IMG/VR virus record: IMGVR_UViG_2529293061_000007
Source: a virus
Lineage: Duplodnaviria > Heunggongvirae > Uroviricota > Caudoviricetes
Strand: one strand, 5' to 3'
DNA length: 35,846 nt
Below, one piece after another: positions 1,445 through 17,387 of this stretch. The notes under the pieces were generated by a model. That model saw only the letters and a list, made by a program, of their open reading frames with translations. It made no database searches and was not told where the DNA came from. Numbering within the stretch: position 1 is the first letter of the stretch; each line of letters starts with the position of its first letter. The translations under genes were made by a program, and so were the position numbers.

Positions 1445-1458
1445 TTTAAATCAATAAG
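1400..1458. other. probable prophage left attachment junction (attL) overlapping the tRNA 3' end
   Basis: Integrase stop lies 15 nt downstream of the tRNA; tRNA 3' ends are the usual att core for this integrase type. Exact core not determinable without attR. Confidence 0.35.
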
Positions 1459-3154: not shown

Positions 3155-3516
3155 TATGCTCCAGCCTCCGGTGCTTTTGGCATTACTGCCCAGTGAGTGA
3201 TATTGACGTTTTCAAGGTCCCCGACCTGAAATGTCCACTGCCATTCTCCGGTTTCTTTTTGTCCCCAGGTGTACCAGAGAGAACGCCAGCCAATTAGCCA
3301 GCCTTCTCCGTTAGCATCGAATAACAAAACACTTTCATTTGCTGGTGGCAGTTCAGTTGACACTGGTATTACTTTGTTTTCCTGTGCTGCACATTTAGCT
3401 TCAAGCGCATCGAATTTACGCACCAGGTATTCAGTATCTGTTTCATTTACTTTCAGATCTCGCGGTACACATCTCCCACGAAGAAACCCTTCCATTTCGA
3501 AAACATTCATGCGCAT
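3154..3516 (-). CDS. hypothetical early-left protein (120 aa; resembles CPS-53 YfdS)
   Basis: ORF with GGAG RBS 8 nt upstream of ATG; overlaps upstream gene by 10 nt. Confidence 0.6.
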   Translation of the reverse strand: MRMNVFEMEGFLRGRCVPRDLKVNETDTEYLVRKFDALEAKCAAQENKVIPVSTELPPANESVLLFDANGEGWLIGWRSLWYTWGQKETGEWQWTFQVGDLENVNITHWAVMPKAPEAGA

Positions 3517-4043
3517 TTGCGTAACTCCGATAACTCGTTAAAGCGTTCCATAAACATCCCGTAGGCATGGCCCGGTGCCAGTGGAATCACGTTGAACATC
3601 TCTGTTGCCGGGATACCTTCCAGTACAGGCCAGAAAGAGCCATCATCAAGCCCGAGATCGCGGCGTTCGGTTGCCAGCATGATGAGATCGGCATATTTCA
3701 CGGGCGTACTCATAACTGGGGGTAACCCGTATTTCTCACGGATTACGGCGTCTATTTTTTCTTCCATTTGTTTATAGTCAGGAAGAAGGCGTTTCAGTGG
3801 TGCGGGAATGTCCTGGCAATACGCTTCTGTTGCATCATGCATTAACGCTTCAAAAGCAAATTCCTGCGGCACCAGCTGGCTGCAAAGAACCGCATGTTGG
3901 GCGACGCTGTAGAAGTGCGAAAGATGACCGGCAAAGCGACAGATATTTGAAAGGGAAACCGCGATATCGTTAATATCGATGTCGTCTTTATTTATCCTGT
4001 CATAATAAAAATGCTTCCCGGAAAAAGTTTTAATAAATGACAT
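3507..4043 (-). CDS. HD-domain phosphohydrolase (YfdR-like 5'-deoxynucleotidase family)
   Basis: His/Asp metal-binding motifs (...FAGHLSHFYSVAQHAV...LMHDATEAY...); likely start is ATG at 4041-4043 with GTGGAG RBS rather than the upstream GTG at 4070. Confidence 0.7.
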   Translation of the reverse strand: MSFIKTFSGKHFYYDRINKDDIDINDIAVSLSNICRFAGHLSHFYSVAQHAVLCSQLVPQEFAFEALMHDATEAYCQDIPAPLKRLLPDYKQMEEKIDAVIREKYGLPPVMSTPVKYADLIMLATERRDLGLDDGSFWPVLEGIPATEMFNVIPLAPGHAYGMFMERFNELSELRKCA

Positions 4044-4170
4044 TTTGTTCTCCACGTATATGCGCTGCACCGCGCTGAATTCTGGTAAAAAGAATCCCTC
4101 ACCATCCGGCGATTATTGAGTAAATTACGTTTCCATAAATGCCCCCGCAGGGGCATTTGCAGTAATGAAA

Positions 4171-4995
4171 TCAGGCGGTGAAAGTACCAATAAAGGTTTC
4201 TACTTTGCTGTCCTTGAATTTCTCAACAAGCAGATCACGAAATTCGTTAGCCATTTCTTCCTGCACCGCCTCCAGCTGAATAATGCGCAGAACCAGTACC
4301 GGACGATCGCCAGTGATAATGCTGAGGCGTAATTTAAACGGACGTTCTTTCAGACCTTCAAACGGAATGCATTTAAATTCAAATGCCACTGGCATAATGT
4401 CTTTGGTCTTCGCTTCGACAGACTCCATCAGGGAGCGTTTGCCGCTGAAGTCATTATCTTCAAAATCAGCGGTCTGGTTTGCTTCAATCGTGATTTTACG
4501 GACCGCCGCAGCCGCTTTTGTTGCCTGAATGGTGTCACCATTAGCATCAAAGCCCACAAGGTAGTCGGCCCAGTCTTCAATCCATTCTGCCAGTGATTTC
4601 TGGGAGTTACGCTCGCCATTAACAGACAACAGAGCAGAGAACGGTGCTGTCTTTTTCAGTTTGAGAGTGGCGGTGTTATCTGCGTGACCTGGTTCATCAA
4701 TAGTACCCAGGTTAAGCACACTGACGGCACGCATATTATCAGCATCGATAAAGCAGCGGGTGCCTTCATCTGCAAGATCTTTAGAATAACGGGTAAAGTC
4801 ATCGATGCTGGCAGTGGAAAGCGCACCACGGAAACGGAAGCGATTTAAATTAAATTTTTCCAGATCATGAATGCGGAAATTCTCAGGCAATGCCACAGCA
4901 TCGGCACCAATCTTACTGATAATTTCATTAACACCCTGAGCAGAAATAAGGGCATGGATTTGATTAATTGCGGTTGCGTCTAAGTTCTGAGACAT
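4171..4995 (-). CDS. DUF2303-family protein (YfdQ-like)
   Basis: 274-aa ORF; translation recalled as YfdQ-like; typical coding composition. Confidence 0.65.
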
Positions 4996-5060
4996 AATAA
5001 GTCCTCACTATATAAAGATATTCAGTGATGAGATAAATAATCAGTTAATTAAGAACGATA

Positions 5061-5423
5061 TTAATGACCTGCTGCGCGGAGTTTTCCGTCAGGTTCACCG
5101 GCAAGAGTCAGTAATTGTCCCTGGTCTTCCTGCAGAATAGTCAGGCGACCACCGCGATTGACATACATCGGCGTTTCGGTGGTGTCTTCTTCGGAAATTT
5201 TCCCGCGGTTAGTCGGGCGAACATATGAGAGTTTGTGTTTGATTTTCACACGGTTCTCATCAAATGGTTCGATTTCCAGGTTGAGTGAGACCTTACCTTT
5301 GGTTTTCGTGTTCATCACACCGGAAGCGACTTCACTGAGAACTGCGCCGATTTTGGTTTCAAATACGCCGCCGTCCAGCTCCCCGATAAATGCCTGCACA
5401 TCAGTACTGCGTTCGCTAGCCAT
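5061..5423 (-). CDS. hypothetical protein (YfdP-like, 120 aa)
   Basis: Protein-like translation begins at internal ATG 5421-5423 (MASERSTDVQAFIGELDGG...) with GAGGAG RBS; the 5' extension of the 226-aa ORF translates to junk. Confidence 0.6.
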   Translation of the reverse strand: MASERSTDVQAFIGELDGGVFETKIGAVLSEVASGVMNTKTKGKVSLNLEIEPFDENRVKIKHKLSYVRPTNRGKISEEDTTETPMYVNRGGRLTILQEDQGQLLTLAGEPDGKLRAAGH

Positions 5424-5471
5424 TTTGCTGCTCCTCATCATATCGACCCTGCAAGGCCGATTAGTTTCTCC

Positions 5472-5560
5472 ACAAAACAGAGAAGAACACCTGCGGTGGC
5501 AGCCGCCAGGATGGATTGGGTTATGAGCCCGTCGTCCGGTGATGCTCTTCTCTGTTTTGT
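5472..5560. repeat. perfect 15-bp inverted repeat (ACAAAACAGAGAAGA / TCTTCTCTGTTTTGT) flanking a 59-bp GC-rich spacer
   Basis: Read directly: 5472-5486 is the reverse complement of 5546-5560; lies in an ORF-free GC-rich segment. Confidence 0.7.
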
Positions 5561-5860
5561 AAAAAGGACGGTCCCAGCCGTAAGCAAGGGTACAAACTGG
5601 TACCGCCAGGACTACACACAGCATAAAGTTGTGGTGCCGGGTGCCTCCCGGTGCCTGGCGAAGGTTGCACACCAGACGGGTGGGTATCCACAGAAGGTCG
5701 ACTGTCAGCCTCAACCTTAACCCGCGTGCGCTGAGCCGCATTCACCACAACGCTAAGGATTCTCTTTGGTTGAAAATACTTAGCTGTTATGTGCCTGTCT
5801 TTTCACCACTTCAGGCTCGGTGGTATCCTTTTAAGCCCGTATACATAAAAGGAAAATCAA

Positions 5861-6106
5861 ATGACTTTTGATGAAAAAGAACTTGATAATGCAATTAATA
5901 AAATCATCGTAACGTCGCTCTTTTCCTGTCTCAGCGACACTCAGCAGAAACAGTTCTACGAATCGGCTTTCAACATGATCGAGCGTTGTTGTTTCTGCGA
6001 TGCCGACGAGTTACCTGAAAAAATCAGGAAACAGTTGGCTGATGCTCTTCGAGTGCGACTTTCTGACCAATTTTCTGAAATGTGCTCTCCGAATTTGGAC
6101 AAATAG
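5861..6106 (+). CDS. hypothetical small protein (81 aa), transcribed opposite to the early-left operon
   Basis: ATG with AAGGA RBS; AT-rich; helical-looking translation; stop TAG followed by a hairpin. Confidence 0.5.
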   Translation: MTFDEKELDNAINKIIVTSLFSCLSDTQQKQFYESAFNMIERCCFCDADELPEKIRKQLADALRVRLSDQFSEMCSPNLDK

Positions 6107-6299
6107 AAAAAGGCCATTTCCATTCAGGGTCTGATGGAAATACTTCAGCCTGTTCCAAAGCACGGCGTAAAGAGAACACAACTCCAGCCATAATCTGATG
6201 TTTCCCATTGGTCCAGCTATCGCCGCTCTGATCTACAGGGGCGGCTATGTCGTATGACCAAACGACTTCACAGTTATTGTTTAAAATCTGGACTTTCAT
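6024..6299 (-). CDS. hypothetical protein (first ORF downstream of PL; start probably ATG at 6297-6299)
   Basis: AGGTG RBS before internal ATG; but the ORF reads through a terminator-like hairpin and overlaps the convergent + ORF, so it is uncertain. Confidence 0.3.
   Translation of the reverse strand: MKVQILNNNCEVVWSYDIAAPVDQSGDSWTNGKHQIMAGVVFSLRRALEQAEVFPSDPEWKWPFSICPNSESTFQKIGQKVALEEHQPTVS
6101..6141 (-). terminator. candidate intrinsic terminator (tL1-like) on the minus strand
   Basis: 8-bp stem ATTTCCAT/ATGGAAAT (6116-6123 / 6134-6141), 10-nt loop, then CCTTTTTCTATTT on the minus strand; stem is AT-rich, so weak. Confidence 0.35.
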
Positions 6300-6404
6300 T
6301 TCATACACCTGCTTTAACATGAGTGCCTAGTGGCACAACATGACTCAACGAATCATCCTGGACTTCATATGCCCCAGGCGGCTACTTCGTGGGCGTCCTG
6401 CCTG

Positions 6405-6455
6405 TTCGTTGTTTCGCTTGGGTACATTATGTATCTCAAAGGTACATTGTCAAGT
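6405..6455 (-). promoter_or_regulatory. candidate PL promoter with OL operators
   Basis: Minus-strand TTGACA (6448-6453), 16-nt spacer, CATAAT (6426-6431); two GGTACAT motifs overlap, matching the half-sites seen in the cI-cro intergenic region. Confidence 0.5.
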
Positions 6456-6480
6456 ATAAAAAAACCTGCCGAAGCAGGTT
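6456..6480 (-). terminator. intrinsic terminator downstream of cI
   Basis: Hairpin AACCTGC-CGAA-GCAGGTT (6463-6480) followed on the minus strand by a U-tract (6456-6462); 13 nt past the cI stop. Confidence 0.55.
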
Positions 6481-6492
6481 CATAAACATTGA

Positions 6493-7167
6493 TTAGGCTT
6501 TGATTTTGTATCTTCTTGGTTTTCCTGAGAAAATCACTGTACCAATTATAGAGCAATTACCGTTGATCTTAATGTAAGGCTCAGGCCAATTTGGGTTTAA
6601 CGCTTTGAGATAACGCTGTGTCCCATCTTCTATCAACCTTTTGAAGGTGGTTTCACCTGTATCGTGCATCAATGCAATAACGTCGTCACCGTGGCAGGCA
6701 GGTACTTCAGGATCGACAAAAATCATGTCTCCCGGGCGGTACTCATCAATCATTGAATCACCTATCACCCGCAAGATATAAGTCATTTCCCCACAGGGTA
6801 CAGGGCAGGGATACGTTTCTGCTGTGCTCAAATCAACCTCAGAATATCCAACTTCTTTCCATGCTCCGGCCTGTACCCATGATATGACAGGGACTAATGT
6901 GATTTGTTTATTAGTGATTGAAACATCAGGTTTTTTTGTGATGTTCGTTGTCTGGTGTTCTTGATCGAGCCATCCGACAGGCAGGTCGAAACATTTTTCG
7001 ATGTGTCGTGCCATGCTGTCACCGATATTTTTAGTAGCACCATCTCCCATAAACCTGCTGGTCTGGGTTGGCTCGCGATCAATCATAGTGGCAAAGGAAG
7101 AATTCCCGCCAACACCATCTCTCAGTTTTCTGGCGTTAGACCGCCGGATGTCATGGATTGTTTTCAT
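6493..7167 (-). CDS. cI: CI-type phage repressor (N-terminal DNA-binding domain + S24 LexA-like autopeptidase domain)
   Basis: C-terminal GDSM (catalytic Ser) and FKRL (Lys) S24 motifs; divergent from a cro-like gene; essentially leaderless start. Confidence 0.85.
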   Translation of the reverse strand: MKTIHDIRRSNARKLRDGVGGNSSFATMIDREPTQTSRFMGDGATKNIGDSMARHIEKCFDLPVGWLDQEHQTTNITKKPDVSITNKQITLVPVISWVQAGAWKEVGYSEVDLSTAETYPCPVPCGEMTYILRVIGDSMIDEYRPGDMIFVDPEVPACHGDDVIALMHDTGETTFKRLIEDGTQRYLKALNPNWPEPYIKINGNCSIIGTVIFSGKPRRYKIKA

Positions 7168-7257
7168 AACGAAATTAAAACCCTTGTACCGTTAAGGTAC
7201 AAGTATCTTGAAGGTTCATTTCAATCATGTAATATGTACACCGGAGGTACATATTGT
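7168..7257. promoter_or_regulatory. OR/PR/PRM region between cI and cro
   Basis: Palindrome CTTGTACC-GTTAA-GGTACAAG (7183-7203) and AATATGTAC-ACCGGAG-GTACATATT (7231-7255); PR candidate TTGAAG (7208-7213) / TAATAT (7230-7235). Confidence 0.55.
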
Positions 7258-7458
7258 ATGAAAGCGTATTGGGACTCTTTAACCAAAGAACAGCAGGGCG
7301 AGTTGGCCGGAAAAGTTGGCTCAACACCTGGCTACTTACGGCTGGGTTTCAATGGCTATAAAAAAGCCAGTTTTGTGCTGGCTAAAAAACTTGAGCAATG
7401 CACGTCAGGTGCAATTACGAAATCTGACTTAAGACCGGATATCTATCCGAAAGATTAG
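7258..7458 (+). CDS. cro: Cro-like HTH regulator (66 aa)
   Basis: Internal ATG at 7258 with GGAGG RBS; HTH-like segment ...ELAGKVGSTPGYLRL...; divergent from cI. Confidence 0.7.
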   Translation: MKAYWDSLTKEQQGELAGKVGSTPGYLRLGFNGYKKASFVLAKKLEQCTSGAITKSDLRPDIYPKD

Positions 7459-7489
7459 CAGAACACTTTCAATTTTTAACCACAGAACG

Positions 7490-8059
7490 ATGAGGCTAAT
7501 CGTGGGTAAGCATCACTGGAAAATAGAAAAACAGCCTGAGTGGTACGTGAAAGCTGTCAGAAAAACTATCGCGGCGTTGCCGGGTGGTTACGCTGAAGCG
7601 GCTGACTGGCTCGATGTAACAGAAAACGCTTTATTCAACCGCCTTCGTGCAGATGGCGATCAGATTTTCCCGCTGGGATGGGCAATGGTTTTACAGCGTG
7701 CTGGTGGCACTCACTTCATTGCTGATGCTGTGGCGCAGTCTGCAAATGGCGTCTTTGTGTCTCTTCCTGACGTCGAGGATGTGGACAACGCCGATATTAA
7801 CCAGCGTCTGCTGGAAGTCATTGAACAGATCGGCAGTTATTCAAAACAGATTCGTTCAGCAATCGAAGACGGTGTAGTGGAACCGCATGAGAAGACAGCA
7901 ATTAACGACGAGCTGTATCTCTCAATTTCGAAGCTGCAGGAGCATGCAGCACTTGTCTACAAAATTTTTTGCATTTCAGAAAGTAATGACGCCCGCGAGT
8001 GTGCAGCTCCGGGCGTCGTGGCGTCGATTGCTTCTGGTTGTGGAGAAACTAACGCATGA
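7490..8059 (+). CDS. hypothetical protein at the cII position (189 aa)
   Basis: First gene after cro; protein-like translation; family not assigned with confidence. Confidence 0.5.
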
Positions 8060-8394
8060 ACAGTTTAACAACACACTACCGTCGCTCGCAACTGATTGCG
8101 CTTCCTGTACCGGGTGGAAAAGCGAAGGTGGAATATTGCTATGCAGTGAATGTACCAGGTGACAGGGAAATTGTAACCCACAGCTTTGCAGAGTGGGCTG
8201 TGGGTGATTTCAACCGGCAGAAGGAGACAGTCCTTTGCGACAAGTTAACCGCTGGTTCAAAGATCACTACGGAGTGCCCGTCAGAGTCATTCGTTGGGAG
8301 CCGGAAACACAACGTGTTATCTACCTCCGCGAAGGCTATGAGCATGAGTGCTTCAGCCCGCTCGAACAGTTTCGTCGTAAATTCAGGGAAATAG
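8056..8394 (+). CDS. hypothetical protein with apparent frameshift (frame continues more plausibly in the next frame to 8414)
   Basis: ATGA-coupled start; N-terminal ~55 aa protein-like, C-terminal part low-complexity; the adjacent frame gives ...[39 protein letters not shown]...GHEH ending ATGA-coupled to the O-like gene; T-run at 8234-8236. Confidence 0.4.
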
Positions 8395-8403
8395 AGGTCG
8401 GTC

Positions 8404-9345
8404 ATGAGCACTAAATTAACCGGCTATGTATGGGATGGTTGCGCTGCATCAGGCATGAAATTATCCAGCGTGGCAATTATGGCCCGCCTGGCTGATTTCA
8501 GTAATGACGAAGGTGTGTGCTGGCCATCAATTGAAACCATTGCCCGCCAGATTGGCGCGGGAATGAGTACCGTCAGAACGGCTATCGCACGGCTGGAAGC
8601 AGAAGGCTGGTTAACGCGTAAGGCGCGTCGCCAGGGTAACCGCAATGCGTCGAATGTTTATCAGCTTAACGTTGCGAAGCTTCAGGCAGCGGCATTTTCT
8701 CAACTGTCAGATTCTGACCCGTCAAAATCTGACGCATCAAAATCTGACCCGTCAAAATTTGATGCGTCGAAATCTGGCAAAAAAGCGGGTTTTCACCCGT
8801 CAGAATCTGGCGGGGATCCGTCAGTAAAATCAAAACATGATCCGTCAGATAAAAAAACTTCTCGTCCGGACGCTTCGCAACCGGACACGCAGACGGCTGA
8901 ACAGGAGTTTTTAACTCGCCATCCTGATGCGGTTGTATTCAGCCCTAAAAAGCGCCAGTGGGGAACGCAGGGTGATTTGACCTGCGCACAGTGGCTCTGG
9001 AAAAAAATCATCGCCCTGTACGAGCAGGCCGCCGAATGTGACGGCGAGGTGGTTCGTCCCAAAGAACCGAACTGGACAGCCTGGGCAAACGAAATTCGCC
9101 TGATGTGTGTGCAGGATGGTCGTACTCATAAACAAATCTGCGAGATGTACAGCCGCGTCAGTCGCGATCCGTTCTGGTGCCGTAACGTGCTCAGCCCGTC
9201 GAAGCTGCGGGAAAAATGGGATGAGCTTTCCCTGCGCTTATCGCCGTCCGTCAGCACGTACACCGAAAAACGCGAAGACCCGTACTTCAAAGCCAGTTAC
9301 GACAACGTGGACTACAGCCAGATCCCGGCAGGATTCAGGGGGTGA
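8404..9345 (+). CDS. phage replication initiation protein (O-like, N-terminal HTH) with iteron-containing linker
   Basis: 313-aa ORF; N-terminal HTH-like region; central SDPSK/SDASK repeats encoded by tandem DNA repeats; sits at the lambda O position. Confidence 0.7.
   Translation: MSTKLTGYVWDGCAASGMKLSSVAIMARLADFSNDEGVCWPSIETIARQIGAGMSTVRTAIARLEAEGWLTRKARRQGNRNASNVYQLNVAKLQAAAFSQLSDSDPSKSDASKSDPSKFDASKSGKKAGFHPSESGGDPSVKSKHDPSDKKTSRPDASQPDTQTAEQEFLTRHPDAVVFSPKKRQWGTQGDLTCAQWLWKKIIALYEQAAECDGEVVRPKEPNWTAWANEIRLMCVQDGRTHKQICEMYSRVSRDPFWCRNVLSPSKLREKWDELSLRLSPSVSTYTEKREDPYFKASYDNVDYSQIPAGFRG
8705..8850 (+). repeat. tandem iterons (probable phage origin of replication) inside the O-like gene
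   Basis: Four tandem 15-bp units TCTGACCCGTCAAAA / TCTGACGCATCAAAA / TCTGACCCGTCAAAA / TTTGATGCGTCGAAA (8713-8772), further CCGTCAG motifs, then an A-rich tract GATAAAAAAA. Confidence 0.65.
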
Positions 9346-9347
9346 GC

Positions 9348-9836
9348 ATGAGTCTTTTGAATGACGTTCAGAAATTCATTGAAGCCCATCCGGGCTGTAC
9401 TTCCGGAGATATTGCGGATGCTTTTGCCGGTTACTCACGGCAGCGCGTTCTGCAGTCAGCAAGCAAGTTACGTCAGAGTGGGCGTGTGGCTCACCGTTGT
9501 GAAGGAGATACACGCAGACATTTCCCGCGCCTGACTGAGAGAGCGCAGGAACCGGAACCACAACCAGTTCGTGAAACCAGACCTGTGCGCAATTTCTATG
9601 TCGGCACTAACGATCCCCGTGTGATTTTGTGCCTGACCCGCCAGGCGGAAGAACTGGAGTCCAGGGGCTTATACCGTCGTGCTGCAACCGTGTGGATGGC
9701 GGCATTCCGTGAAAGCCACTCCCAGCCAGAACGAAACAATTTTCTGGCGCGTCGTGAGCGGTGCTTACGGAAAAGCAGCAAGCGCGCTGCATCGGGTGAA
9801 GAGTGGTATCTGTCAGGGAATTACGTGGGGGCTTAA
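9348..9836 (+). CDS. putative PerC-family (Pch-like) transcriptional regulator
   Basis: C-terminal segment ...ELESRGLYRRAATVWMAAF...ERNNFLARRERCL resembles the PerC signature as recalled; ATG at 9348 with GGGGG RBS. Confidence 0.45.
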   Translation: MSLLNDVQKFIEAHPGCTSGDIADAFAGYSRQRVLQSASKLRQSGRVAHRCEGDTRRHFPRLTERAQEPEPQPVRETRPVRNFYVGTNDPRVILCLTRQAEELESRGLYRRAATVWMAAFRESHSQPERNNFLARRERCLRKSSKRAASGEEWYLSGNYVGA

Positions 9837-10489
9837 TGAGTAATAAATATTGCCAGGCGCTGGTGGAACTGCGGAACAAACCAGCCCATGAACTGAAGGA
9901 AGTGGGCGATCAGTGGCGCACGCCGGACAACATTTTCTGGGGAATTAACACCCTGTTTGGCCCGTTTGTTCTGGATCTGTTCACTGACGGTGATAACGCC
10001 AAATGTGCCGCGTATTACACGGCGGAAGACAACGCGCTGGCGCATGACTGGTCAGAACGTCTTGCGGAGCTTAAAGGTGCTGCCTTTGGTAATCCCCCAT
10101 ACAGCCGCGCCAGTCAGCATGAGGGGCAATACATCACCGGCATGCGTTACATCATGAAACATGCCAGTGCCATGCGTGATAAGGGCGGGCGCTATGTTTT
10201 CCTGATCAAAGCTGCCACCAGCGAAGTGTGGTGGCCGGAAGATGCAGATCATATTGCTTTTATTCGCGGGCGTATTGGTTTTGAACTGCCTGTCTGGTTT
10301 ATCCCGAAAGACGAGAAGCAGGTACCGACAGGAGCTTTTTTCGCTGGTGCTATTGCTGTTTTTGACAAGACCTGGAAGGGACCGGCAATCAGCTACATCG
10401 GGCGCGATGAACTTGAGGCATGTGGTGAGGCGTTTCTGGCGCAGGTTCGCCAGCAGGCGGAAAAACTGGTCAGGGAGATGGCGGCATGA
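9836..10489 (+). CDS. phage DNA N6-adenine methyltransferase (Dam-like)
   Basis: Catalytic motif GNPPYS; ATGA-coupled start at 9836; size about 217 aa. Confidence 0.8.
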   Translation: MSNKYCQALVELRNKPAHELKEVGDQWRTPDNIFWGINTLFGPFVLDLFTDGDNAKCAAYYTAEDNALAHDWSERLAELKGAAFGNPPYSRASQHEGQYITGMRYIMKHASAMRDKGGRYVFLIKAATSEVWWPEDADHIAFIRGRIGFELPVWFIPKDEKQVPTGAFFAGAIAVFDKTWKGPAISYIGRDELEACGEAFLAQVRQQAEKLVREMAA

Positions 10490-10812
10490 CGACGTTAACT
10501 CAATGCCAGCAGCAGGTGCTGGATATGCTGATTTCTTATCAGAAAGAACGTGGCTTCCCGCCAACCAATCAGGAGGTGGCAACCATGCTGGGATACCGTT
10601 CGGTGAATGCAGCGGTGGAGCATCTTCGCGCACTGGAGAAAAAAGGCGTCATCACGATAAAGCGTGGCGTGGCCCGGGGGATAACGCTTCATACCGCGGT
10701 GAAGGACGACGACAGCGAGGCGGTCGGGATTATCCGCGCACTGCTTGCCGGTGAGGAAAACGCAAGGCTGCGTGCAACCCACTGGTTACATGAGAGGGAC
10801 CTGAAAGTATGA
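10486..10812 (+). CDS. LexA N-terminal DNA-binding-domain protein (no peptidase domain)
   Basis: Translation ...TQCQQQVLDMLISYQKERGFPPTNQEVATMLGYRSVNAAVEHLRALEKKGVI... parallels the LexA winged-helix DBD; 108 aa only. Confidence 0.7.
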   Translation: MTTLTQCQQQVLDMLISYQKERGFPPTNQEVATMLGYRSVNAAVEHLRALEKKGVITIKRGVARGITLHTAVKDDDSEAVGIIRALLAGEENARLRATHWLHERDLKV

Positions 10813-11198
10813 AGCTGATCCTGCCTTTTCCGCCCAGCGTGAACACGTACTGGCGACACCCCAACAAAGGGGCGTTTGCTGGTAAGAGCCTGATAAGCGC
10901 GGCGGGGCGAAAATTCCAGAGCGCGGCGTGCGCAGCAATAGTTGAGCAGTTACGTCGTCTGCCGAAACCAACGTCGGCACCTGCTTCAGTGGAGATCGTG
11001 TTGTTTCCTCCGGATAACCGGATCCGCGATCTGGACAACTATAACAAGGCGCTGTTTGACGCCCTGACCCACGCGGGTGTGTGGGAGGACGACAGTCAGG
11101 TGAAAAGAATGCTGGTGGAGTGGGGACCGGTTATCCCGGAAGGGAAGGTCGAGATCACTATCAGTAAGTACGAGAAAACGGCGGGTGCAGCCGCCTGA
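10809..11198 (+). CDS. rusA: RusA-family Holliday junction resolvase
   Basis: ...PPSVNTYWRH...DLDNYNKALFDALTHAGVWEDDSQV... RusA signature with catalytic Asp cluster. Confidence 0.85.
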   Translation: MKLILPFPPSVNTYWRHPNKGAFAGKSLISAAGRKFQSAACAAIVEQLRRLPKPTSAPASVEIVLFPPDNRIRDLDNYNKALFDALTHAGVWEDDSQVKRMLVEWGPVIPEGKVEITISKYEKTAGAAA

Positions 11199-11217
11199 TC
11201 AAGAGGAGAAACGAAGT

Positions 11218-12015
11218 ATGAATAATCTGATGGTCATTGATGGTATTGAAGTTCGTCGTGATGCTTATGGTCGTTACAGCCTGAACGATCTGCACAGGGC
11301 TGCTGGTTCTCTGGATAAGCATAAGCCCGCATTCTGGCTCCGCAATGAGCAAACTGAACGCTTAATAAGCGAGTTGCAGATTTGCAACTCGGTCAATATA
11401 GCGCCAGTTAATGTCATTCGTGGTGGAAATAACCAGGGAACGTATGTCTGCAAGGAACTGGTGTATGCCTATGCAATGTGGATTAGCCCGTCATTCCATC
11501 TGAAGGTGATCCGTACTTTTGACATGGTAACCAGCATACCGGAAAAATTATCCGGGCAGGCTGCTGACAAGATGCAGGCTGGTGTGATTCTGCTGGACTT
11601 TATGCGTCGGGAGTTAAATCTGTCTAACTCATCTGTGCTTGGGGCCTGTCAGAAACTCCAGGAGGCTGTTGGCTTACCGAATCTGGCACCGCGCTATGCC
11701 ATTGATGCTCCTGCTGACGCGCCTGATGGCTCAAGCCGCCCCACGCTGTCACTGAGTGCACTGCTGAAGCAGTATGGTATCCGCCTGACAGCTAATCAGG
11801 CATATCACCAGATGGTGAAGCTGGGGATCGTCGAGCAGCGCGAACGATACAGCCGTACCGCGATTAACAACATCAAAAAATTCTGGTCGCTGACAGCGAA
11901 AGGCTGCATGTTCGGCAAGAATATCACCAGTCCCGCAAATCCGCGCGAGACGCAGCCGCATTTCTTCGAATCCCGATTCCCTGAGCTGTTAAAGCTGCTC
12001 GATACCGTTCATTGA
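11218..12015 (+). CDS. KilA-N domain protein (Roi-like; BstA-like alternative)
   Basis: N-terminal MNNLMVIDGIEVRRDAYGRYSLNDLHRAAG... KilA-N-type sequence; AGAGGAGA RBS; C-terminal domain unassigned. Confidence 0.65.
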   Translation: MNNLMVIDGIEVRRDAYGRYSLNDLHRAAGSLDKHKPAFWLRNEQTERLISELQICNSVNIAPVNVIRGGNNQGTYVCKELVYAYAMWISPSFHLKVIRTFDMVTSIPEKLSGQAADKMQAGVILLDFMRRELNLSNSSVLGACQKLQEAVGLPNLAPRYAIDAPADAPDGSSRPTLSLSALLKQYGIRLTANQAYHQMVKLGIVEQRERYSRTAINNIKKFWSLTAKGCMFGKNITSPANPRETQPHFFESRFPELLKLLDTVH

Positions 12016-12016
12016 G

Positions 12017-13012
12017 GTGACCGTGAGAGCACTACTGACCCCTGAAATAGCCCCGCGTATGGGGATCGTATTGTTCAGACCCGGTTCAGAGCTGATGCCC
12101 CTGTTTATGCAGGGGCGTGTCCTGCTGGAGCCTGAGCCGGAACGTTATTCATCTTTCGCCAGTGGTGCCGTTCCCGCGGCATCACAACCGCTGGCGGATG
12201 ATCCTGCCGTTCGAGCCGTGTTCTGCAATGAGGCAGTGATCCGTCGTGCTGGTGGCGTGGAATGTCTTGAAAGCTGGTTACTTCGTGAAAAGGGCTGTCA
12301 GTGGCCTCATTCCGACTGGCACAGCGAGAACATGACCACAATGCGACACGCGCCGGGCGCGATCCGTCTGTGCTGGCACTGCGATAACCAGCTGCGCGAT
12401 CAGTTCACGGAACGGCTGGAATCAATGGCAACGGATAACTGTGCCCGCTGGGTGTTGTCTGTTGTGCGTCGGGATCTCGGTTTTGATGACAGTCACGTTG
12501 TGACAATGCCGGAACTGTGCTGGTGGCTGATTCGTAATGACCTGGCGGATGCCTTACCGGAAAGTGCAGCCCGTAAGGCACTGAGATTACCGAAGCCTGT
12601 TGTGCCGTCTGTCACCCGGGAAAGTGACCTTGTGCCTTCGGTTCCTGCCACCAGCATCATCCAGGATAAGGCGAAAAAGGTGCTGGCGCTGAAAGTGGAT
12701 CCGGAGTCGCCGGAGTCTTTTATGTTACGCCCAAAACGTCGCCGCTGGGTTAATGAAAAGTACACGCGCTGGGTTAAGACACAGCCGTGTGCATGTTGTG
12801 GAAAGCCTGCTGATGATCCCCACCACCTGATAGGCCACGGTCAGGGTGGGATGGGTACAAAAGCGCATGACCTCTTTGTGTTGCCTTTGTGCAGAAAGCA
12901 TCACGACGATCTGCATGCGGATACCGTGGCATTTGAAGAGAAGTATGGCTCCCAGCTGGAGCTGATATTTCGTTTTATCGATCGTGCGCTGGCAATAGGC
13001 GTACTGGCGTAA
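12017..13012 (+). CDS. DUF968-type protein with C-terminal Cys/His (HNH-like) motif
   Basis: GTG start overlapping upstream stop; C-terminal ...CACCGKPADDPHHLIGHG...LCRKHHDDLH...; nin-region position. Confidence 0.5.
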   Translation: MTVRALLTPEIAPRMGIVLFRPGSELMPLFMQGRVLLEPEPERYSSFASGAVPAASQPLADDPAVRAVFCNEAVIRRAGGVECLESWLLREKGCQWPHSDWHSENMTTMRHAPGAIRLCWHCDNQLRDQFTERLESMATDNCARWVLSVVRRDLGFDDSHVVTMPELCWWLIRNDLADALPESAARKALRLPKPVVPSVTRESDLVPSVPATSIIQDKAKKVLALKVDPESPESFMLRPKRRRWVNEKYTRWVKTQPCACCGKPADDPHHLIGHGQGGMGTKAHDLFVLPLCRKHHDDLHADTVAFEEKYGSQLELIFRFIDRALAIGVLA

Positions 13013-13025
13013 GTGGAGAACGAGC

Positions 13026-13778
13026 ATGAACCTTGAAGCTTTACCAAAATATTACTCCCCAAAATCTCCAAAATTGAGTGATGACGCACCGGCGACAGGC
13101 TCGGGTGGTTTAACAATTACAGATGTGATGGCTGCGCAGGGGATGGTGCAGTCGAAAGCACCGCTTGGGTTTGCCTTATTCCTGGCAAAAGTTGGTGTTC
13201 AGGATCCTCAGTTTGCGATTGAAGGTCTGCTCAATTACGCGATGGGACTGGATAACCCGACATTGAACAAATTGAGTGAAGAAATCCGGTTACAGATCAT
13301 CCCTTACCTTGTGAATTTTGCCTTTGCTGATTATTCCAGGTCTGCGGCAAGTAAGGCTCGCTGTGAGCATTGTGCTGGTACTGGATTTCATAATGTATTG
13401 CGCGAGGTGGTGAAACACTCCAGAAGCGGGGAATCTGTTATCAAGGAAGAGTGGGTGAAGGAACTATGTCAGCATTGTCATGGTAAGGGAGAAGTCAGCA
13501 CAGCGTGCAGAGGGTGTAAGGGTAAAGGTATTGTCCTGGATGAAAAAAGGACCCGGCTTCATGGCACGCCTGTTTATAAGATTTGTGGGCGTTGCAATGG
13601 AAACCGATTTAGCCGTTTACCAACCACACTGGCGCGGAATCATGTCCAGAAGCTGGTACCAGACCTGACGGATTATCAGTGGTACAAAGGATATGCAGAT
13701 GTCATTGATAAACTGGTTACAAAGTGCTGGCAGGAAGAAGCATATGCAGAGACACAATTGAGAAAGGTGACAAGATAA
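13026..13778 (+). CDS. late-gene antitermination protein Q
   Basis: Cys-rich zinc-binding segment (CEHCAGTG...CQHCHGKG...CRGCKGKG...CGRCNG); immediately upstream of the lysis region; GGAG RBS. Confidence 0.8.
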   Translation: MNLEALPKYYSPKSPKLSDDAPATGSGGLTITDVMAAQGMVQSKAPLGFALFLAKVGVQDPQFAIEGLLNYAMGLDNPTLNKLSEEIRLQIIPYLVNFAFADYSRSAASKARCEHCAGTGFHNVLREVVKHSRSGESVIKEEWVKELCQHCHGKGEVSTACRGCKGKGIVLDEKRTRLHGTPVYKICGRCNGNRFSRLPTTLARNHVQKLVPDLTDYQWYKGYADVIDKLVTKCWQEEAYAETQLRKVTR

Positions 13779-13809
13779 ATGATTTTCGACGAAGATGGCG
13801 ACATGATAC

Positions 13810-13838
13810 TTGCATTTTTCAAAAAATCTGGATAAGAT
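13810..13838 (+). promoter_or_regulatory. candidate late promoter PR'
   Basis: TTGCAT (13810-13815), 17-nt spacer, TAAGAT (13833-13838), just downstream of Q. Confidence 0.35.
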
Positions 13839-13980
13839 TTTCTCAACGATGGGCTTTATGTATCTGCTGTTGATAACCTTCAAGAACTCGCCATTGAGCG
13901 GGTTTTTTATTGTGTAAAAACAGAATGACGGTATTAATTAGTAATATAATTATTCGACCATACAACTAGGGGTCGAAAAA

Positions 13981-14766
13981 ATGTATGTTTTTGAGTTAAT
14001 CAAGCCAGGCAGTAATCTTAAGTTTGAAAACAGAGAGTTAGAATGGACGTTTAATAACTTATTATCCCATTTAGAAACTGCATTTTATGATGCTAATGTA
14101 GCATTAAATTTATTCGAACAGGAAAGAACTAAGAATAACAGTAAATTCGATAATATTTCTCAGACATGGCAAGCTGATGTACAGAAACGACAAGCACTGG
14201 AAATGCTGGTTCGTAAAGAGTTTGGTTATCAACCTTATGAATATTCAGAACAGGTTTTTTCAGAGGTCGAGCTACGTCTAAAAAGAGAAAAATGGAATAA
14301 CGGTGAATATCCGTTGGCTCATCAACACAGATTGATCTTCTTACATGCAAAATCATTTCTCTACGCTTTGGATGCTATTGATAAATTTTTAAAGGTAATT
14401 TCAAAAGAAAATGGCGCGCCAGAGAACATTAAAAAATTGCATGAACAGCTTTCTAAAGACTTTCCGGATTTAAGAAAGGTAAGGAATTCAGCTCAACACA
14501 TGGAAGACAGAGTTCGTGGGCTTGGTGCAGAGAAAGAACCAAAGCCAATAAAACTCAAACCTGTAAATAATATTCATGTTGTTGCACCTCAGGGGGCATT
14601 GATGTTGAATAACTTATTCGGAACTAAATTTGGGTGCACTATGGCTGATGGCTATTATGGTGAAGTAGATATTTCGACAGAGTCTTTGGCAAAGTTGCAA
14701 AATTTAATCCAAAAAGTTTTTAATTCCTTCAGTTGGGAAGGACCAAAGCAACACCTTCCTCGATAA
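13981..14766 (+). CDS. AT-rich moron protein (261 aa) with two Rx4H motifs; candidate HEPN-type ribonuclease / Abi protein
   Basis: Visibly AT-rich codon usage versus flanks; motifs RLIFLH and RNSAQH; sits between Q and the holin (the stx position of Stx phages); terminator follows. Confidence 0.6.
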   Translation: MYVFELIKPGSNLKFENRELEWTFNNLLSHLETAFYDANVALNLFEQERTKNNSKFDNISQTWQADVQKRQALEMLVRKEFGYQPYEYSEQVFSEVELRLKREKWNNGEYPLAHQHRLIFLHAKSFLYALDAIDKFLKVISKENGAPENIKKLHEQLSKDFPDLRKVRNSAQHMEDRVRGLGAEKEPKPIKLKPVNNIHVVAPQGALMLNNLFGTKFGCTMADGYYGEVDISTESLAKLQNLIQKVFNSFSWEGPKQHLPR

Positions 14767-14783
14767 CATTTTCTTTTTTATTG

Positions 14784-14815
14784 AAAGCCGCCAAATAATT
14801 GGCGGCTTTTTTATT
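14784..14815 (+). terminator. intrinsic terminator after the Q-S moron
   Basis: Stem AAAGCCGCCAA / TTGGCGGCTTT with loop ATAA followed by a T-tract. Confidence 0.7.
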
Positions 14816-14855
14816 TCACAGTACCCGCAAATATCGCGAGGTGAGAGATGACGAA

Positions 14856-15182
14856 ATGCCTCATAACCCAAATACCTGGCTGGAGTTGGTCCAGAGCTGG
14901 TGGCGTGGAGACACGCCGCTGGGCGCAGTAATTATGTCGATCGTTATGGCTGGCTTGCGCATTGCCTATTTTGGCGGTGGTGGTGGCTGGAAGCGAAAAA
15001 CGCTCGAGATTTTGCTCTGTGGCGCTCTGACACTGACTTTTGCATCCGCTCTTGAGTATGTCGGATGGCCTAAATCACTTTCTGTTGCCATTGGTGGTGG
15101 GGTGGGGCTGATCGGTGTCGATGCTATTCGTGGGGCTGCAATGCGAGTAATCGGTAATAAATTTGGTAGCTCGAAGGAGTAA
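14856..15182 (+). CDS. holin (lambda S-like class)
   Basis: ATG at 14856 with GAGGTGAGAG RBS; about 108 aa with hydrophobic TM segments and charged C-terminus; directly upstream of the endolysin. Confidence 0.75.
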   Translation: MPHNPNTWLELVQSWWRGDTPLGAVIMSIVMAGLRIAYFGGGGGWKRKTLEILLCGALTLTFASALEYVGWPKSLSVAIGGGVGLIGVDAIRGAAMRVIGNKFGSSKE

Positions 15183-15185
15183 TTT

Positions 15186-15662
15186 ATGCAGGCTCTAAAT
15201 TCCCAGCGTAAAGCTTTCCTTGATATGGTGGCATGGTCAGAAGGAACGGATAACGGGCGACAACCGACACGTAACCACGGTTATGATGTTATTGTTGGTG
15301 GCGAACTGTTCACTGATTACTCCGATCACCCTCGCAAACTTGTCACGCTAAACCCCAAACTCAAATCAACAGCCGCCGGGCGTTATCAGCTTCTTTCACG
15401 CTGGTGGGATGCTTACCGTAAACAGCTTGGTTTGAAAGACTTCTCCCCCAAAAGCCAGGACGCAGTGGCATTGCAGCAGATTAAAGAGCGTGGCGCTTTA
15501 GCGATGATTGATCGCGGTGATATTCGTCAGGCTATCGACCGTTGCAGCAATATCTGGGCTTCACTGCCGGGGGCTGGTTACGGTCAGTTCGAGCATAAGG
15601 CTGACAGCCTGATTGCAAAATTTAAAGAAGCTGGCGGAACGGTCAGAGAGATGGAGGCATGA
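15186..15662 (+). CDS. R: endolysin, lambda R-type lytic transglycosylase
   Basis: Translation near-identical over long stretches to lambda R as recalled (...[55 protein letters not shown]...). Confidence 0.95.
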
Positions 15663-16126
15663 GCAGAGTCACCGCGATTATCTCCGCTCTGGTTATCTGC
15701 ATCATCGTCTGCCTGTCATGGTCTGTTAATCATTACCGTGACAACGCCATCACCTATAAAGACCAGCGCGATAAAAAAGTCAGTGAGCTGCAGCTGGCGA
15801 CCGCCACCATTACTGACATGCAGCAGCGCCAGCGTGATGCTGATGCACTTGATGCTAAATACACGAAGGAGTTAGCTGATGCGAAAGCTGAAAATGATGC
15901 TCTTCGGCGCAAGCTTGATAATGGTGGTAGGGTGCTCGTCAAAGGCAGATGTCCAGTGCCAGCCACAACAAAAGCCTCCGGCACCGCCAGCGTGGGCAAT
16001 GATGCCACCGTCGAACTCTCTCCAATTGCTGGACGAAACCTTCTCGGTATCAGATCCGGAATTATCAGAGATCAAGCATCATTGAGAGCGTTACAGGAAT
16101 ATATTGACACTCAGTGTCGGAAGTAA
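15659..16126 (+). CDS. Rz: i-spanin Rz
   Basis: N-terminal TM anchor, coiled-coil periplasmic domain; ATGA-coupled to R. Confidence 0.85.
15879..16085 (+). CDS. Rz1: o-spanin Rz1 (lipoprotein, embedded in Rz in the +1 frame)
   Basis: [21 protein letters not shown] lipobox; Pro-rich mature part; AAGGAG RBS; wholly inside Rz. Confidence 0.75.
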
Positions 16127-16192
16127 ACTCTTTTGCTGGAATAAATAGTTATTGCGAATAGGTGCTGCTAAATGTTGGTCGCTTGTGTAAAA

Positions 16193-16226
16193 TATAGTGG
16201 TAAGGTGTCTTTTTTATAGTGGTAAG
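16193..16226 (+). repeat. 12-bp direct repeat TATAGTGGTAAG (x2) just upstream of the post-lysis moron
   Basis: Copies at 16193-16204 and 16215-16226, separated by 10 bp; each contains a -10-like TATAGT. Confidence 0.6.
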
Positions 16227-16231
16227 TACGC

Positions 16232-16840
16232 ATGGACTATTTTTACATAGCAACTAAATCGCAAAATCCTTGGGTTAAGTATAGGCCTTTGGCAGTAGGA
16301 GATTTAGCTAGCACCTCATTCCCAAATCCCTTTTTTAATTATTTCTTAAGTTCAAACATCCCTCCAATACCAGTAAATGTTAACGGGCATCTAACTGACT
16401 ATACGAGAATGCAGTGGCTTTATGGCCTAAAGACAGGGTCACTTACTACTAAGTGTTCTGTACAAGATATAGCGGCAGTTGGTCAAGAATTGGCTATGCA
16501 TTTTTGTAAATATACTAGAGAACTGATTTGGGAAGCCGTTCGAGTTGAATGTTACCCAAAAAAGCCTTCAAGACAGAAATGCTTATGGGTTTCACAAGGT
16601 GAAGAAAGTCTTCACTATTGGATTTCGCAGTTGGGATTGGGGGACAATCAGACTGTGTTCAGAGTTGAGTTGGATGGAGTTATACATGAGGCGAGTGATG
16701 AACATTTGATGAATGACGATATACCGTATGATATTGCCTTAGAAAAAGCTCATAAATATTGGAGTGGTGAAATAGTTGATCCGTTAAAAAAGGAAATACT
16801 TTTTGAAGGAAATATGCGGATTCTAGAGCACATTTTATAG
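16232..16840 (+). CDS. AT-rich moron protein (202 aa), function unknown
   Basis: Located after Rz/Rz1 (the lambda bor-region equivalent); AT-rich; terminator-like element follows; no family recognised. Confidence 0.55.
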   Translation: MDYFYIATKSQNPWVKYRPLAVGDLASTSFPNPFFNYFLSSNIPPIPVNVNGHLTDYTRMQWLYGLKTGSLTTKCSVQDIAAVGQELAMHFCKYTRELIWEAVRVECYPKKPSRQKCLWVSQGEESLHYWISQLGLGDNQTVFRVELDGVIHEASDEHLMNDDIPYDIALEKAHKYWSGEIVDPLKKEILFEGNMRILEHIL

Positions 16841-16841
16841 C

Positions 16842-16860
16842 CGCCTTCTGGCGTTTTTTG
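16842..16860 (+). terminator. candidate intrinsic terminator after the post-lysis moron
   Basis: Short GC stem CGCC/GGCG with loop TTCT followed by TTTTTTG. Confidence 0.4.
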
Positions 16861-16911
16861 TTGCCATCACCATGGACAAACATCATCGTGATGATTGCAG
16901 GAAAACTTTAA

Positions 16912-17262
16912 ATGCCACCACGAACCCCAAAAGCCTGCCGTGTTCGCGGCTGCCGCAATACCACGACTGACCCGTCAGGCTACTGCGAAAGCCACAAAAG
17001 CGAAGGCTGGAAGCAATACAAGCCAGGACAATCCCGTCATCAGCGCGGTTATGGTTCGAAATGGGATGTTATCCGTGAACGTGTGCTCAAGCGTGACAAA
17101 GGCCTGTGTCAGTTATGTCGGCGTGCTGGTGTGGTGCGTGAGGCGAAGACCGTTGACCACATCATCCCTAAATCGCATGGCGGCACTGATGTCGACAGTA
17201 ATCTGCAGAGTTTGTGCTGGCCGTGTCATAAGGCGAAGACGGCCCGTGAACGGCTGAAGTAA
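16912..17262 (+). CDS. HNH endonuclease (packaging-associated)
   Basis: Cys/His-rich ...CQLCRRAG...VDHIIPKSHGGTDVDSNLQSLCWPCHKAK...; immediately upstream of terminase genes as in HK97-like phages. Confidence 0.85.
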   Translation: MPPRTPKACRVRGCRNTTTDPSGYCESHKSEGWKQYKPGQSRHQRGYGSKWDVIRERVLKRDKGLCQLCRRAGVVREAKTVDHIIPKSHGGTDVDSNLQSLCWPCHKAKTARERLK

Positions 17263-17387
17263 GAACCAGTTCCCACTGCCAGAGGGGAGGGGCGGGTCAA
17301 ATCCCTGTGACCTGACGTCTTCCGGACTGCCCGCCCCATCGTTTTTTTATACCCGCGAAAAATGAAATTTAACCAGGAGTGCCGCAT
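17263..17387. other. candidate cos / packaging-site region
   Basis: Intergenic segment between HNH and TerS with GC-rich inverted repeat GGGGCGGG...CCCGCCCC and a T-tract; by analogy with HK97-like genomes. Not directly demonstrable. Confidence 0.3.

Follow-up and report, generated by a model that had tools for sequence, protein, structure and literature searches.

The dam gene and the LexA-like gene of an SfV-type prophage are probably separately gained and lost cargo genes

Do an orphan phage gene for a DNA adenine methyltransferase and the gene for a truncated LexA protein whose start codon overlaps the methyltransferase stop codon form a functional unit, and what could a LexA DNA-binding domain devoid of its protease domain accomplish for a phage? 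Both questions are raised by a locus on a 35,846-nucleotide stretch of DNA (IMG/VR record IMGVR_UViG_2529293061_000007; hereafter the window), whose gene map comprises an integrase gene, a cI gene with an S24 domain, a cII-like gene, an O-like replication gene, the Q antiterminator gene, lysis genes and a terminase gene. This prophage gene map bears out the first-pass annotation of the element as a phage; we read the window as a lambdoid prophage of the SfV/mEp460 type that is inserted at a tRNA-Thr gene (thrW). The two genes of interest lie where the replication genes meet the nin-type module (LexA-like, rusA, KilA-N/Ant, DUF968, Q), and their position and orientation suggest that they are members of the early-rightward operon. 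The features relevant for the analysis are the following.

1369-1444: tRNA-Thr, a feature of the prophage map
9342..9836, plus strand: yfdN (RefSeq annotation), PerC family (Pfam PerC, 7.9e-09), upstream neighbour
9834-9838, plus strand: overlap of the yfdN TAA stop with the dam ATG (TAATG), from the junction sequence
9836..10489, plus strand: dam, orphan phage N6-adenine DNA methyltransferase, 217 aa (PF05869, TIGR01712, PADLOC)
10088..10105, plus strand: catalytic motif IV, GNPPYS, Dam residues 85-90
10486..10489, plus strand: overlap of the dam TGA stop with the ATG of the LexA-like gene (ATGA)
10486..10812, plus strand: LexA-like gene, homologue of SfV orf42, 108 aa (PF01726, 2.9e-19; phrog_362, 3.8e-59)
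10486..10695, plus strand: winged helix-turn-helix DNA-binding domain, residues 1-70 (Foldseek and alignments)
10711..10794, plus strand: predicted C-terminal helical hairpin, helices 76-87 and 93-103 (AF2, pLDDT about 87)
10809-10812: ATGA overlap of the LexA-like gene with rusA
10809..11198, plus strand: rusA, Holliday-junction resolvase, near-constant downstream neighbour (PF05866, 6e-15)
11185..13778, plus strand: KilA-N protein, DUF968 (HNH-like) and antiterminator Q, the remainder of the conserved nin-type module (Pfam matches)

This module is found at 98-99.9% identity in 51 phage records, among them SfV, SfII, mEp460 and Stx2 phages, and is present in 2,702 of the 5,426 complete E. coli genomes, that is in about half of them. 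There is essentially no difference in gene order between the window and phage SfV (GenBank U82619; orf40/yfdN, dam, orf42, rusA, orf44, orf45, Q), whose Dam protein (orf-41), annotated as "DNA adenine methylase", is 100% identical to that of the window and whose orf42 product is 96% identical to the LexA-like protein. These data settle that we are dealing with the standard early-region module of SfV, mEp460 and Stx2 phages, and not with a new system.

The proposal that the first gene encodes a Dam-like N6-adenine methyltransferase with a GNPPYS motif proved correct. Its product matches the Pfam family PF05869 (Dam) with an E-value of 9.7e-46 and 156 bits (cutoff 28.1) over profile positions 3-167 of 169, and the NCBIfam model TIGR01712 (phage_N6A_met) with 256.5 bits (cutoff 97.05) over positions 1-165 of 165; the PADLOC model MTase_II PDLC03263 covers 217 of 217 positions, and the orphan-MTase (oMTase) models match as well. 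Residues N86, P87, P88, Y89 and S90 of the catalytic motif are invariant in our alignment (A4), including the 31%-identical M.EcoVT2Dam. No restriction endonuclease family or domain of a type II restriction-modification system was detected among the scanned genes (window positions 1-17882), and the genes flanking dam encode PerC/YfdN, LexA-like, RusA, KilA-N, DUF968 and Q proteins; the earlier statement that dam has no cognate endonuclease therefore holds within this region. The AF2 model of Dam, built from a shallow alignment, reached a mean pLDDT of 40.9, too low for the model to be used, and a sequence search returned no relative in the PDB. GATC sites are not depleted (144 found, about 139 expected), and a promoter scan revealed no strong sigma-70 site ahead of dam. 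Phase variation through frameshifts in a G5 run that would fuse YfdN to Dam was considered as well and left no sign, since the length of the run varied in just one of 85 distinct junctions.

GATC specificity has been reported for M.EcoVT2Dam (PMC6602927). The Dam protein of VT2-Sakai, the prophage that the same study gives for this enzyme, is 31% identical to the window Dam and has a length of 175 instead of 217 amino acids; unlike the gene in the window, VT2 dam is positioned between ninB and ninE and has no LexA-like neighbour. Common to M.EcoVT2Dam, HP1 Dam, T1 Dam and the window protein are the PF05869 and TIGR01712 signatures, the NPPY motif, the orphan state and the location in a phage nin region. 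From these characterised family members and the annotation of the SfV protein, we infer by analogy that the window Dam methylates GATC. The protein belongs to the HP1/T1/VT2 phage Dam family and is an orphan N6-adenine DNA methyltransferase that depends on S-adenosyl-methionine. Such an enzyme, probably made during lytic development, could top up methylation on rapidly replicating phage DNA, and the methylated progeny would be shielded from restriction enzymes specific for unmethylated sites; in doing so, it would duplicate the activity of the host Dam. Allison et al. reportedly showed experimentally in 2002 that SfV orf-41 is a Dam methylase.

The second gene had been described as encoding a 108-aa LexA winged helix without the autopeptidase domain, a description that proved right. 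The protein matches the LexA_DNA_bind profile (PF01726) over 65 of 65 positions (E 2.9e-19), gives a gap-free alignment with residues 2-70 in the N-terminal domain of E. coli LexA (PDB 1lea, E 6e-16) and is 43% identical to LexA residues 1-86. It scores 70.6 bits against TIGR00498, below the cutoff of 110.95, and covers model positions 1-91 only. There is no match to Peptidase_S24, and the protein ends at residue 108; as the S24 protease/dimerisation domain is missing, so are the counterparts of Ser119 and Lys156. Foldseek superimposed the AF2 model (mean pLDDT 82.9) onto the LexA structures 1lea and 3jso with an rmsd of 1.1-1.3 A over 66-69 residues at 50-52% identity. Residues 1-70 share with E. 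coli LexA the winged-helix fold and an almost identical recognition helix (residues 40-52). When the DNA-contact residues of LexA (listed in PMC3091678) are inspected, S39, N41, A42 and E45 are kept in the LexA-like protein and E44 is replaced by valine. Position 44 is never Glu across the LexA-like family; V, A, F, T, L or Y, usually a hydrophobic residue, are found instead. At positions Q8, K53, R64 and G65 the family does not vary, and E. coli LexA has the same residues there.

Behind a low-confidence linker (residues 71-75), the AF2 model adds a C-terminal two-helix hairpin that none of the PDB matches found by Foldseek covers and whose motif is kept in homologues down to 38-49% identity. 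This conserved hairpin, which replaces the S24 domain, is probably the dimerisation module of the protein; since such a module is unlike that of LexA, the spacing of the half-sites need not be 16 bp. A remnant of the LexA cleavage site was considered at the AG dipeptide 88-89, where LLA-GEE of the window copy aligns to VAA-GEP of LexA (Ala84-Gly85 site). This candidate was ruled out since the LexA-like family does not conserve the Gly: Citrobacter-type members carry Asn at this position, and distant ones lack the entire site. Compared with the Citrobacter homologue, the gene shows a dN of 0.23 at saturated dS, and the dN/dS ratio against SfV is 0.31. About 2,270 of the 5,426 complete E. coli genomes carry the gene, and Shiga-toxin phages are among its carriers.

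The first-pass annotation had further proposed that dam is translationally coupled to the LexA-like gene. The ATGA overlap is indeed there, and an SD-like GGAG is found 8 nt upstream of the LexA-like start. A special pairing of the two genes, however, did not emerge, because the same kind of overlap is present at the O/yfdN, yfdN/dam, LexA-like/rusA and rusA/KilA-N junctions; all junctions between the replication gene and the KilA-N gene overlap alike. The 4-nt start/stop overlap is best viewed as a reflection of how tightly the whole operon is packed, and not of a dedicated partnership. The distribution of the genes likewise speaks against dam and the LexA-like gene as a functional unit, since each of them occurs without the other. 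Among 78 IMG/VR loci that keep the LexA-like gene, dam is absent in 17, and it behaves as a precise 650-bp single-ORF indel bounded by ATGA: in the dam-less loci the LexA-like ATG overlaps the yfdN stop just as the dam ATG does in the window. In complete E. coli genomes, yfdN is joined directly to the LexA-like gene in 761 cases, in comparison with 1,667 that carry dam, and SfIV, Ayreon, 2H10 and mEp390 possess the LexA-like gene but no dam. The reverse is seen at Dam-centred IMG/VR loci, where 46 of 150 distinct junctions lack the LexA-like gene; in 17 of these, Dam abuts rusA. The Salmonella-type Dam (88% identity) overlaps rusA directly, and none of its nine loci contains the LexA-like gene. 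Homologues of the PF05869 Dam were found in 586 phage records, those of the LexA-like protein in 63. We conclude that dam and the LexA-like gene are ordinary cargo, gained and lost separately, in a prophage that is very common in E. coli and Shigella.

A small winged-helix protein encoded next to a methyltransferase could nevertheless serve as its specificity or targeting subunit, and there is a precedent for this in a related phage group: M.EcoPA8orf6770P of the Stx phage PA8 requires the winged-helix protein PNB-2 to act as a 16S rRNA methylase, with which it forms a 1:1 holoenzyme (PMC10810198). As in the window, a prophage methyltransferase annotated as a DNA adenine methylase is encoded there beside a small winged-helix protein. 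The ATGA overlap with dam, rare Dam-LexA-like fusion proteins on record (P0270 and P0272) and the finding that methyltransferases of three unrelated families are encoded directly upstream of LexA-like genes in five of the 12 lineages examined would fit such a partnership; the upstream methyltransferases could hint at a link, or else they are read as different genes sharing a slot. Against it stand the 761 E. coli genomes, SfIV, mEp390 and other lineages in which the LexA-like gene has no methyltransferase beside it, the presence of Dam proteins of the same subfamily next to rusA with no LexA-like gene, and the 586 to 63 ratio in phage records. In contrast to the obligatory pairing of a holoenzyme, co-occurrence is facultative in both directions (17 of 78 loci, 761 genomes, 46 of 150 junctions). 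Moreover, M.EcoPA8orf6770P is an MT-A70 enzyme whose motif is DPPW, as opposed to PF05869 with NPPY; it is encoded in a different genome region, and its partner gene is positioned upstream and not downstream as in the window. Each of the fusions is known as a variant on a single contig, and one indel where the two genes overlap would be enough to create it. On these co-occurrence data we have rejected the idea of a methyltransferase partner and give it hardly any credence. We judge it very improbable, too, that the LexA-like protein works together with RusA and DUF968, for instance by targeting or regulating junction resolution and not transcription, despite the constancy of its downstream neighbours (rusA, DUF968, Q). 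The rusA gene directly follows in 78 of 78 close loci and lies within two genes in 10 of the 12 lineages, down to 38% identity; DUF968 follows in nearly all of them, and the order KilA-N, DUF968, Q is also seen beside distant homologues. The pair even survives mosaic exchange, as seen in the Citrobacter locus L084, where the LexA-like protein is 67% and RusA 91% identical. Yet rusA directly follows dam with no LexA-like gene in the 17 junctions mentioned above, two lineages have the LexA-like gene and DUF968 but no rusA, and a gene order shared inside one phage module can be a matter of inheritance and not of function. In other prophages, DLP12 for example, rusA presumably has no LexA-like neighbour either, which also counts against such a partnership.

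If neither neighbour is its partner, which DNA does the LexA-like protein recognise? With one mismatch allowed, the window contains 18 SOS boxes, where 11.2 are expected, which is not an enrichment, and a perfect box occurs just once, within a coding region (position 26083). Inverted, everted and direct arrangements of CTGT/ACAG with spacers of 0-14 likewise yielded nothing above shuffled sequences in promoter position. A de novo search of the window for repeated 5-6-mer palindromes gave no candidate site for the LexA-like protein; it returned just two palindromes, 7185/7235 and 6429/7234, in the immunity region beside cI, and these are taken as the cI operators. Because no candidate operator was found in the window, the LexA-like protein is regarded as a putative regulator. 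We found no functional study of SfV orf42, which is annotated as "unknown", in the literature searched.

It is against this background that one has to consider the suggestion of the first-pass annotation that the LexA-like protein is a cleavage-resistant binder of LexA boxes. It would then be a mimic of LexA that acts on canonical SOS boxes (CTGT-N8-ACAG) and re-represses, after induction, host SOS genes or the LexA-controlled antirepressors of rival prophages. The close structural match of its DNA-binding domain to that of E. coli LexA, the four of five listed contact residues that are kept, the four family-invariant residues shared with LexA, and the genes for DinI and a C-terminal RecA fragment just upstream of distant LexA-like homologues are in keeping with this idea. 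We nevertheless regard it as rather unlikely, in view of the consistent loss of Glu44, the replacement of the LexA dimerisation domain, the setter of the 16-bp spacing, by an unrelated hairpin, and the lack of SOS-box enrichment in the phage at any spacing, with the sole perfect box in a coding region. A truncated LexA homologue of the Bacillus tectivirus GIL01, the closest counterpart with a known function, also argues against it: gp6 shares 44% identity with the LexA of its host, yet it binds a palindrome unlike the LexA box and activates the late promoter P3 (PMC6182141). Like the protein studied here, gp6 is a phage-encoded LexA DNA-binding domain without a protease domain, and it is made from early genes. 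It differs in its size (66 amino acids versus 108), in the absence of the hairpin and in its origin from a Gram-positive LexA, and BLASTP gave no alignment between the two proteins at E <= 100; they look like independent acquisitions. Late genes of the window phage appear to be controlled by the Q antiterminator, in contrast to the gp6-activated P3 of GIL01.

Taken together, we consider it probable that the two neighbouring genes are independent pieces of cargo, with Dam as an orphan GATC methylase and the LexA-like protein as a putative RecA-insensitive DNA-binding regulator. In this preferred reading of independent cargo, the latter, a LexA-derived protein, would act in a sequence-specific manner in lytic growth, presumably on a site related to, and not identical with, the SOS box. 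In practical terms, the methylase and LexA-like genes should be annotated individually and not as an operonic pair. The example of GIL01 gp6 shows that truncated LexA proteins can acquire both a different binding site and a different function in evolution. A more speculative and quite improbable generalisation is that the LexA-domain-plus-hairpin proteins (about 105 amino acids) of enterobacterial lambdoid phages are constitutive, RecA-insensitive, dimeric LexA mimics that re-occupy SOS-like operators once induction has destroyed the host LexA. If this were true, they would shut down, during phage replication, some of the SOS functions of the host or the antirepressors that LexA controls in competing prophages, and the DinI, RecA-fragment and methyltransferase genes found repeatedly just upstream would form a small cluster that manages the DNA-damage state of the host. 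If promoters under SOS control are among the targets of the LexA-like protein, both prophage induction and the release of Shiga toxin could be affected by it.

The window is a lambdoid prophage, which we place at thrW (the attachment site of the SfV-group phages) because a proA-like fragment and a tRNA-Thr(CGT) gene lie at its left end (window 1-1458), with an integrase gene after them. Its layout is as follows:

1-1254: proA-like aldehyde dehydrogenase fragment, left end of the window
1369-1444: tRNA-Thr(CGT) gene
1459-2622: integrase gene, directly after tRNA-Thr
6493-7167: cI repressor gene with S24 domain
before the O-like gene: cII-like gene
8404-9345: O-like replication gene
9342-9836: yfdN (PerC family)
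9836-10489 (+): dam
10486-10812 (+): LexA-like gene
10809-11198: rusA (Holliday-junction resolvase)
between rusA and the lysis genes: KilA-N gene, then DUF968, then Q (13026-13778)
3' of Q: lysis genes, then an HNH gene and terminase

Palindromes on both sides of cI, TGTAC-N7-GTACA (7185, 7235) and ATGTA-N9-TACAT (6429, 7234), probably represent cI/Cro operators (7185-7251 and 6429-6447). A simple scan of window 6000-14500 returned 23 terminator-like sites against 8.5 (sd 3.0) in shuffles, many of them on the minus strand within early-right genes.

The 217-aa dam product matches Pfam PF05869 (Dam; E 9.7e-46), scores 256 bits against NCBIfam TIGR01712 ("phage N-6-adenine-methyltransferase"; cutoff 97) and aligns over its full length with the PADLOC Type II methyltransferase model. 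GNPPYS occupies residues 85-90, and NPPYS is kept without exception in the family alignment. No endonuclease family adjoins the methylase or occurs among the scanned genes (window 1-17882). The first-pass annotation was thus right in describing a Dam-like N6-adenine methyltransferase without a cognate endonuclease, and the boundaries of its interval, 9836-10812, coincide exactly with the start of dam and the stop of the LexA-like gene. The protein is 100% identical to that of SfV dam (orf41), which GenBank annotates as "DNA adenine methylase" and provides with a -35 and a -10 signal of its own; Allison et al. (J Bacteriol 2002;184:1974) are reported to have confirmed by experiment that SfV orf-41 is a Dam methylase gene. 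Dam proteins 77-83% identical to it occur in Cronobacter, Atlantibacter, Enterobacter and related hosts; they reach 285-392 aa through additional C-terminal regions (loci L105, L185 and related loci; L094:2826-4004; database proteins P0298, P0307, P0361) that the 217-aa E. coli/Shigella form does not have. GATC specificity is documented for one family member, M.EcoVT2Dam, VT2-Sakai being the prophage named for it (PMC6602927); the VT2-Sakai dam is only 31% identical to the window's and is located between ninB and ninE.

[quoted passage not shown] Its score against the LexA equivalog falls short of the cutoff because the match stops at model position 91, in keeping with the earlier description of a LexA winged helix without the autopeptidase domain. 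An AlphaFold2 model (19 sequences, mean pLDDT 82.9) has a winged helix (helices 6-22, 28-35, 40-52; strands 56-58, 66-68), a low-confidence linker (71-75) and a helical hairpin (76-87 and 93-103). Over 66-69 residues, its N-terminal part (50-52% identical) superimposes on LexA (1lea, 3jso) with an rmsd of 1.1-1.3 A; the hairpin had no match in a PDB structure search with the model. Since the hairpin motif (..IIRALL..E.A..A..WL...G) is kept in homologues at 38-49% identity, it is a family feature and not a remnant, and we infer that it stands in for the LexA C-terminal domain as dimerisation element. Compared with its Citrobacter homologue (dN 0.23, dS saturated), the gene is under purifying selection. 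In a variant at the corresponding position of locus L148 (3675-4100), a different, longer C-terminal part replaces the hairpin after a LexA-type N-terminal domain. Proteins of ~160-220 aa carry two tandem LexA DNA-binding domains on one chain without a protease domain (P0130, P0156, P0162; also P0131, P0148, P0150, P0153, P0159) and are possibly single-chain pseudo-dimers.

[quoted passage not shown] The sole characterised one that we found, GIL01 gp6, is a shortened homologue of LexA; it recognises a palindrome of its own and switches on the late promoter (PMC6182141). It has no detectable sequence similarity to the LexA-like protein and no hairpin, and is an analogue, not a relative.

The Ala-Gly aligned with the LexA cleavage site is not kept across the family and the catalytic domain is absent, so that a protein insensitive to RecA is expected. 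The protein may act as an SOS mimic, but this idea is weakened. Among the five listed DNA-contact residues of LexA (S39, N41, A42, E44, E45; PMC3091678), S39, N41 and E45 are largely and A42 mostly kept, but family members have V, A, F, T, L or Y at position 44 and in no case Glu, and SOS-like boxes are not enriched in the phage at any spacing. The half-site spacing may differ from that of the SOS box, given the new dimerisation geometry. The only two repeated palindromes in the phage lie in the immunity region beside cI and are taken to be cI operators.

Do dam and the LexA-like gene form a unit, as their proposed translational coupling implied? The ATGA common to both (10486-10489) is real, but such overlaps also occur at the O/yfdN, yfdN/dam, LexA-like/rusA and rusA/KilA-N junctions, and each gene occurs without the other. 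Among 78 IMG/VR loci with the LexA-like gene at >=98% identity, rusA follows directly in all 78 and dam is missing in 17. At the dam-less junction (...GGGGGC(T/G)TAATGACGACG...), the LexA-like ATG occupies the place that the dam ATG has in the window, with an identical overlap with the yfdN stop; the indel measures 650 bp with ATGA at its bounds, and dam is a precise cassette. Junction-specific searches found dam/LexA-like in 1,667 and yfdN/LexA-like in 761 complete E. coli genomes; the published phages SfIV, Ayreon and 2H10 also have the LexA-like gene without dam. In reverse, across 150 distinct junctions 3' of Dam proteins of the window's subfamily, the LexA-like gene follows 59 of 60 copies at >=95% identity, none of nine Salmonella-type copies (88% identical; ATGA overlap with rusA instead), 45 of 53 at 75-85% and none of 28 below 75%. 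PF05869 homologues are present in 586 phage records and the LexA-like protein in 63. The two genes are not a unit, and the proposed coupling is explained by how closely the operon is packed. An analogy with the Stx-phage MT-A70 methyltransferase, which requires a winged-helix partner for 16S rRNA methylation (PMC10810198), breaks down on family (DPPW versus NPPY) and on co-occurrence.

Many database proteins (P0256-P0269) are YfdN(PerC)-Dam fusions of ~380 aa. The junction of P0263 (..FVGGLMSNK..) is what a single G added to the GGGGG run before TAATG (window 9826-9840) would give, a run whose length differs (G4) in only one of 85 distinct junctions among the loci compared; rare variants or sequencing errors in the homopolymer probably account for the fusions. 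Dam-LexA-like fusions are sporadic (P0270, 324 aa; P0272, 292 aa; P0334; each on one or two contigs), one being full length and the others carrying in-frame deletions that take out the first DNA-binding-domain helices.

Across twelve LexA-like lineages (identity down to 38%), rusA lies within two genes 3' in ten, and DUF968, then Q, follow in nearly all, while the 5' neighbour varies (replication gene, yfdN, small ORFs, DinI or methyltransferase). A methyltransferase lies immediately 5' in five lineages and belongs to one of three unrelated families: PF05869 (217, 284 or 392 aa), PF00145 (C5; 660 or 673 aa) or a PF00145+PF02086 fusion (609 aa). A functional link between these enzymes and the LexA-like genes may exist. 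Since loci with nothing in this position still keep the LexA-like gene, we read the position as a permissive cargo slot between the replication and nin-type modules, the regularity itself being unexplained. Methyltransferases lie immediately 5' of LexA-like genes 38-49% identical to the window's at L090:1171-4324, L094:2826-4336, L096:236-2424 and L098:1446-4357. Some distant homologues have an SOS-related gene one or two genes to their 5' side, namely DinI (L088:1-969; L100:552-1518) and a 95-aa RecA C-terminal-domain fragment (L101:3310-4405).

Fifty-one phage records, including SfV, SfII, mEp460, cdtI and the Stx2a, Stx2c and Stx2k phages, contain the yfdN-to-rusA stretch (1,951 bp) at 98-99.9% identity; this stretch is also matched in 2,702 of 5,426 complete E. 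coli genomes. In Stx2a phage WGPS2 (AP012537 / NC_049941), IS629 splits it into two match pieces over 3.26 kb; IS629 disruption of another Stx-phage methyltransferase is known, with effects on induction (PMC10810198). At the level of annotation, the first-pass description is correct and the element is real; the module was sequenced long ago and is very common, and its methylase is already characterised.
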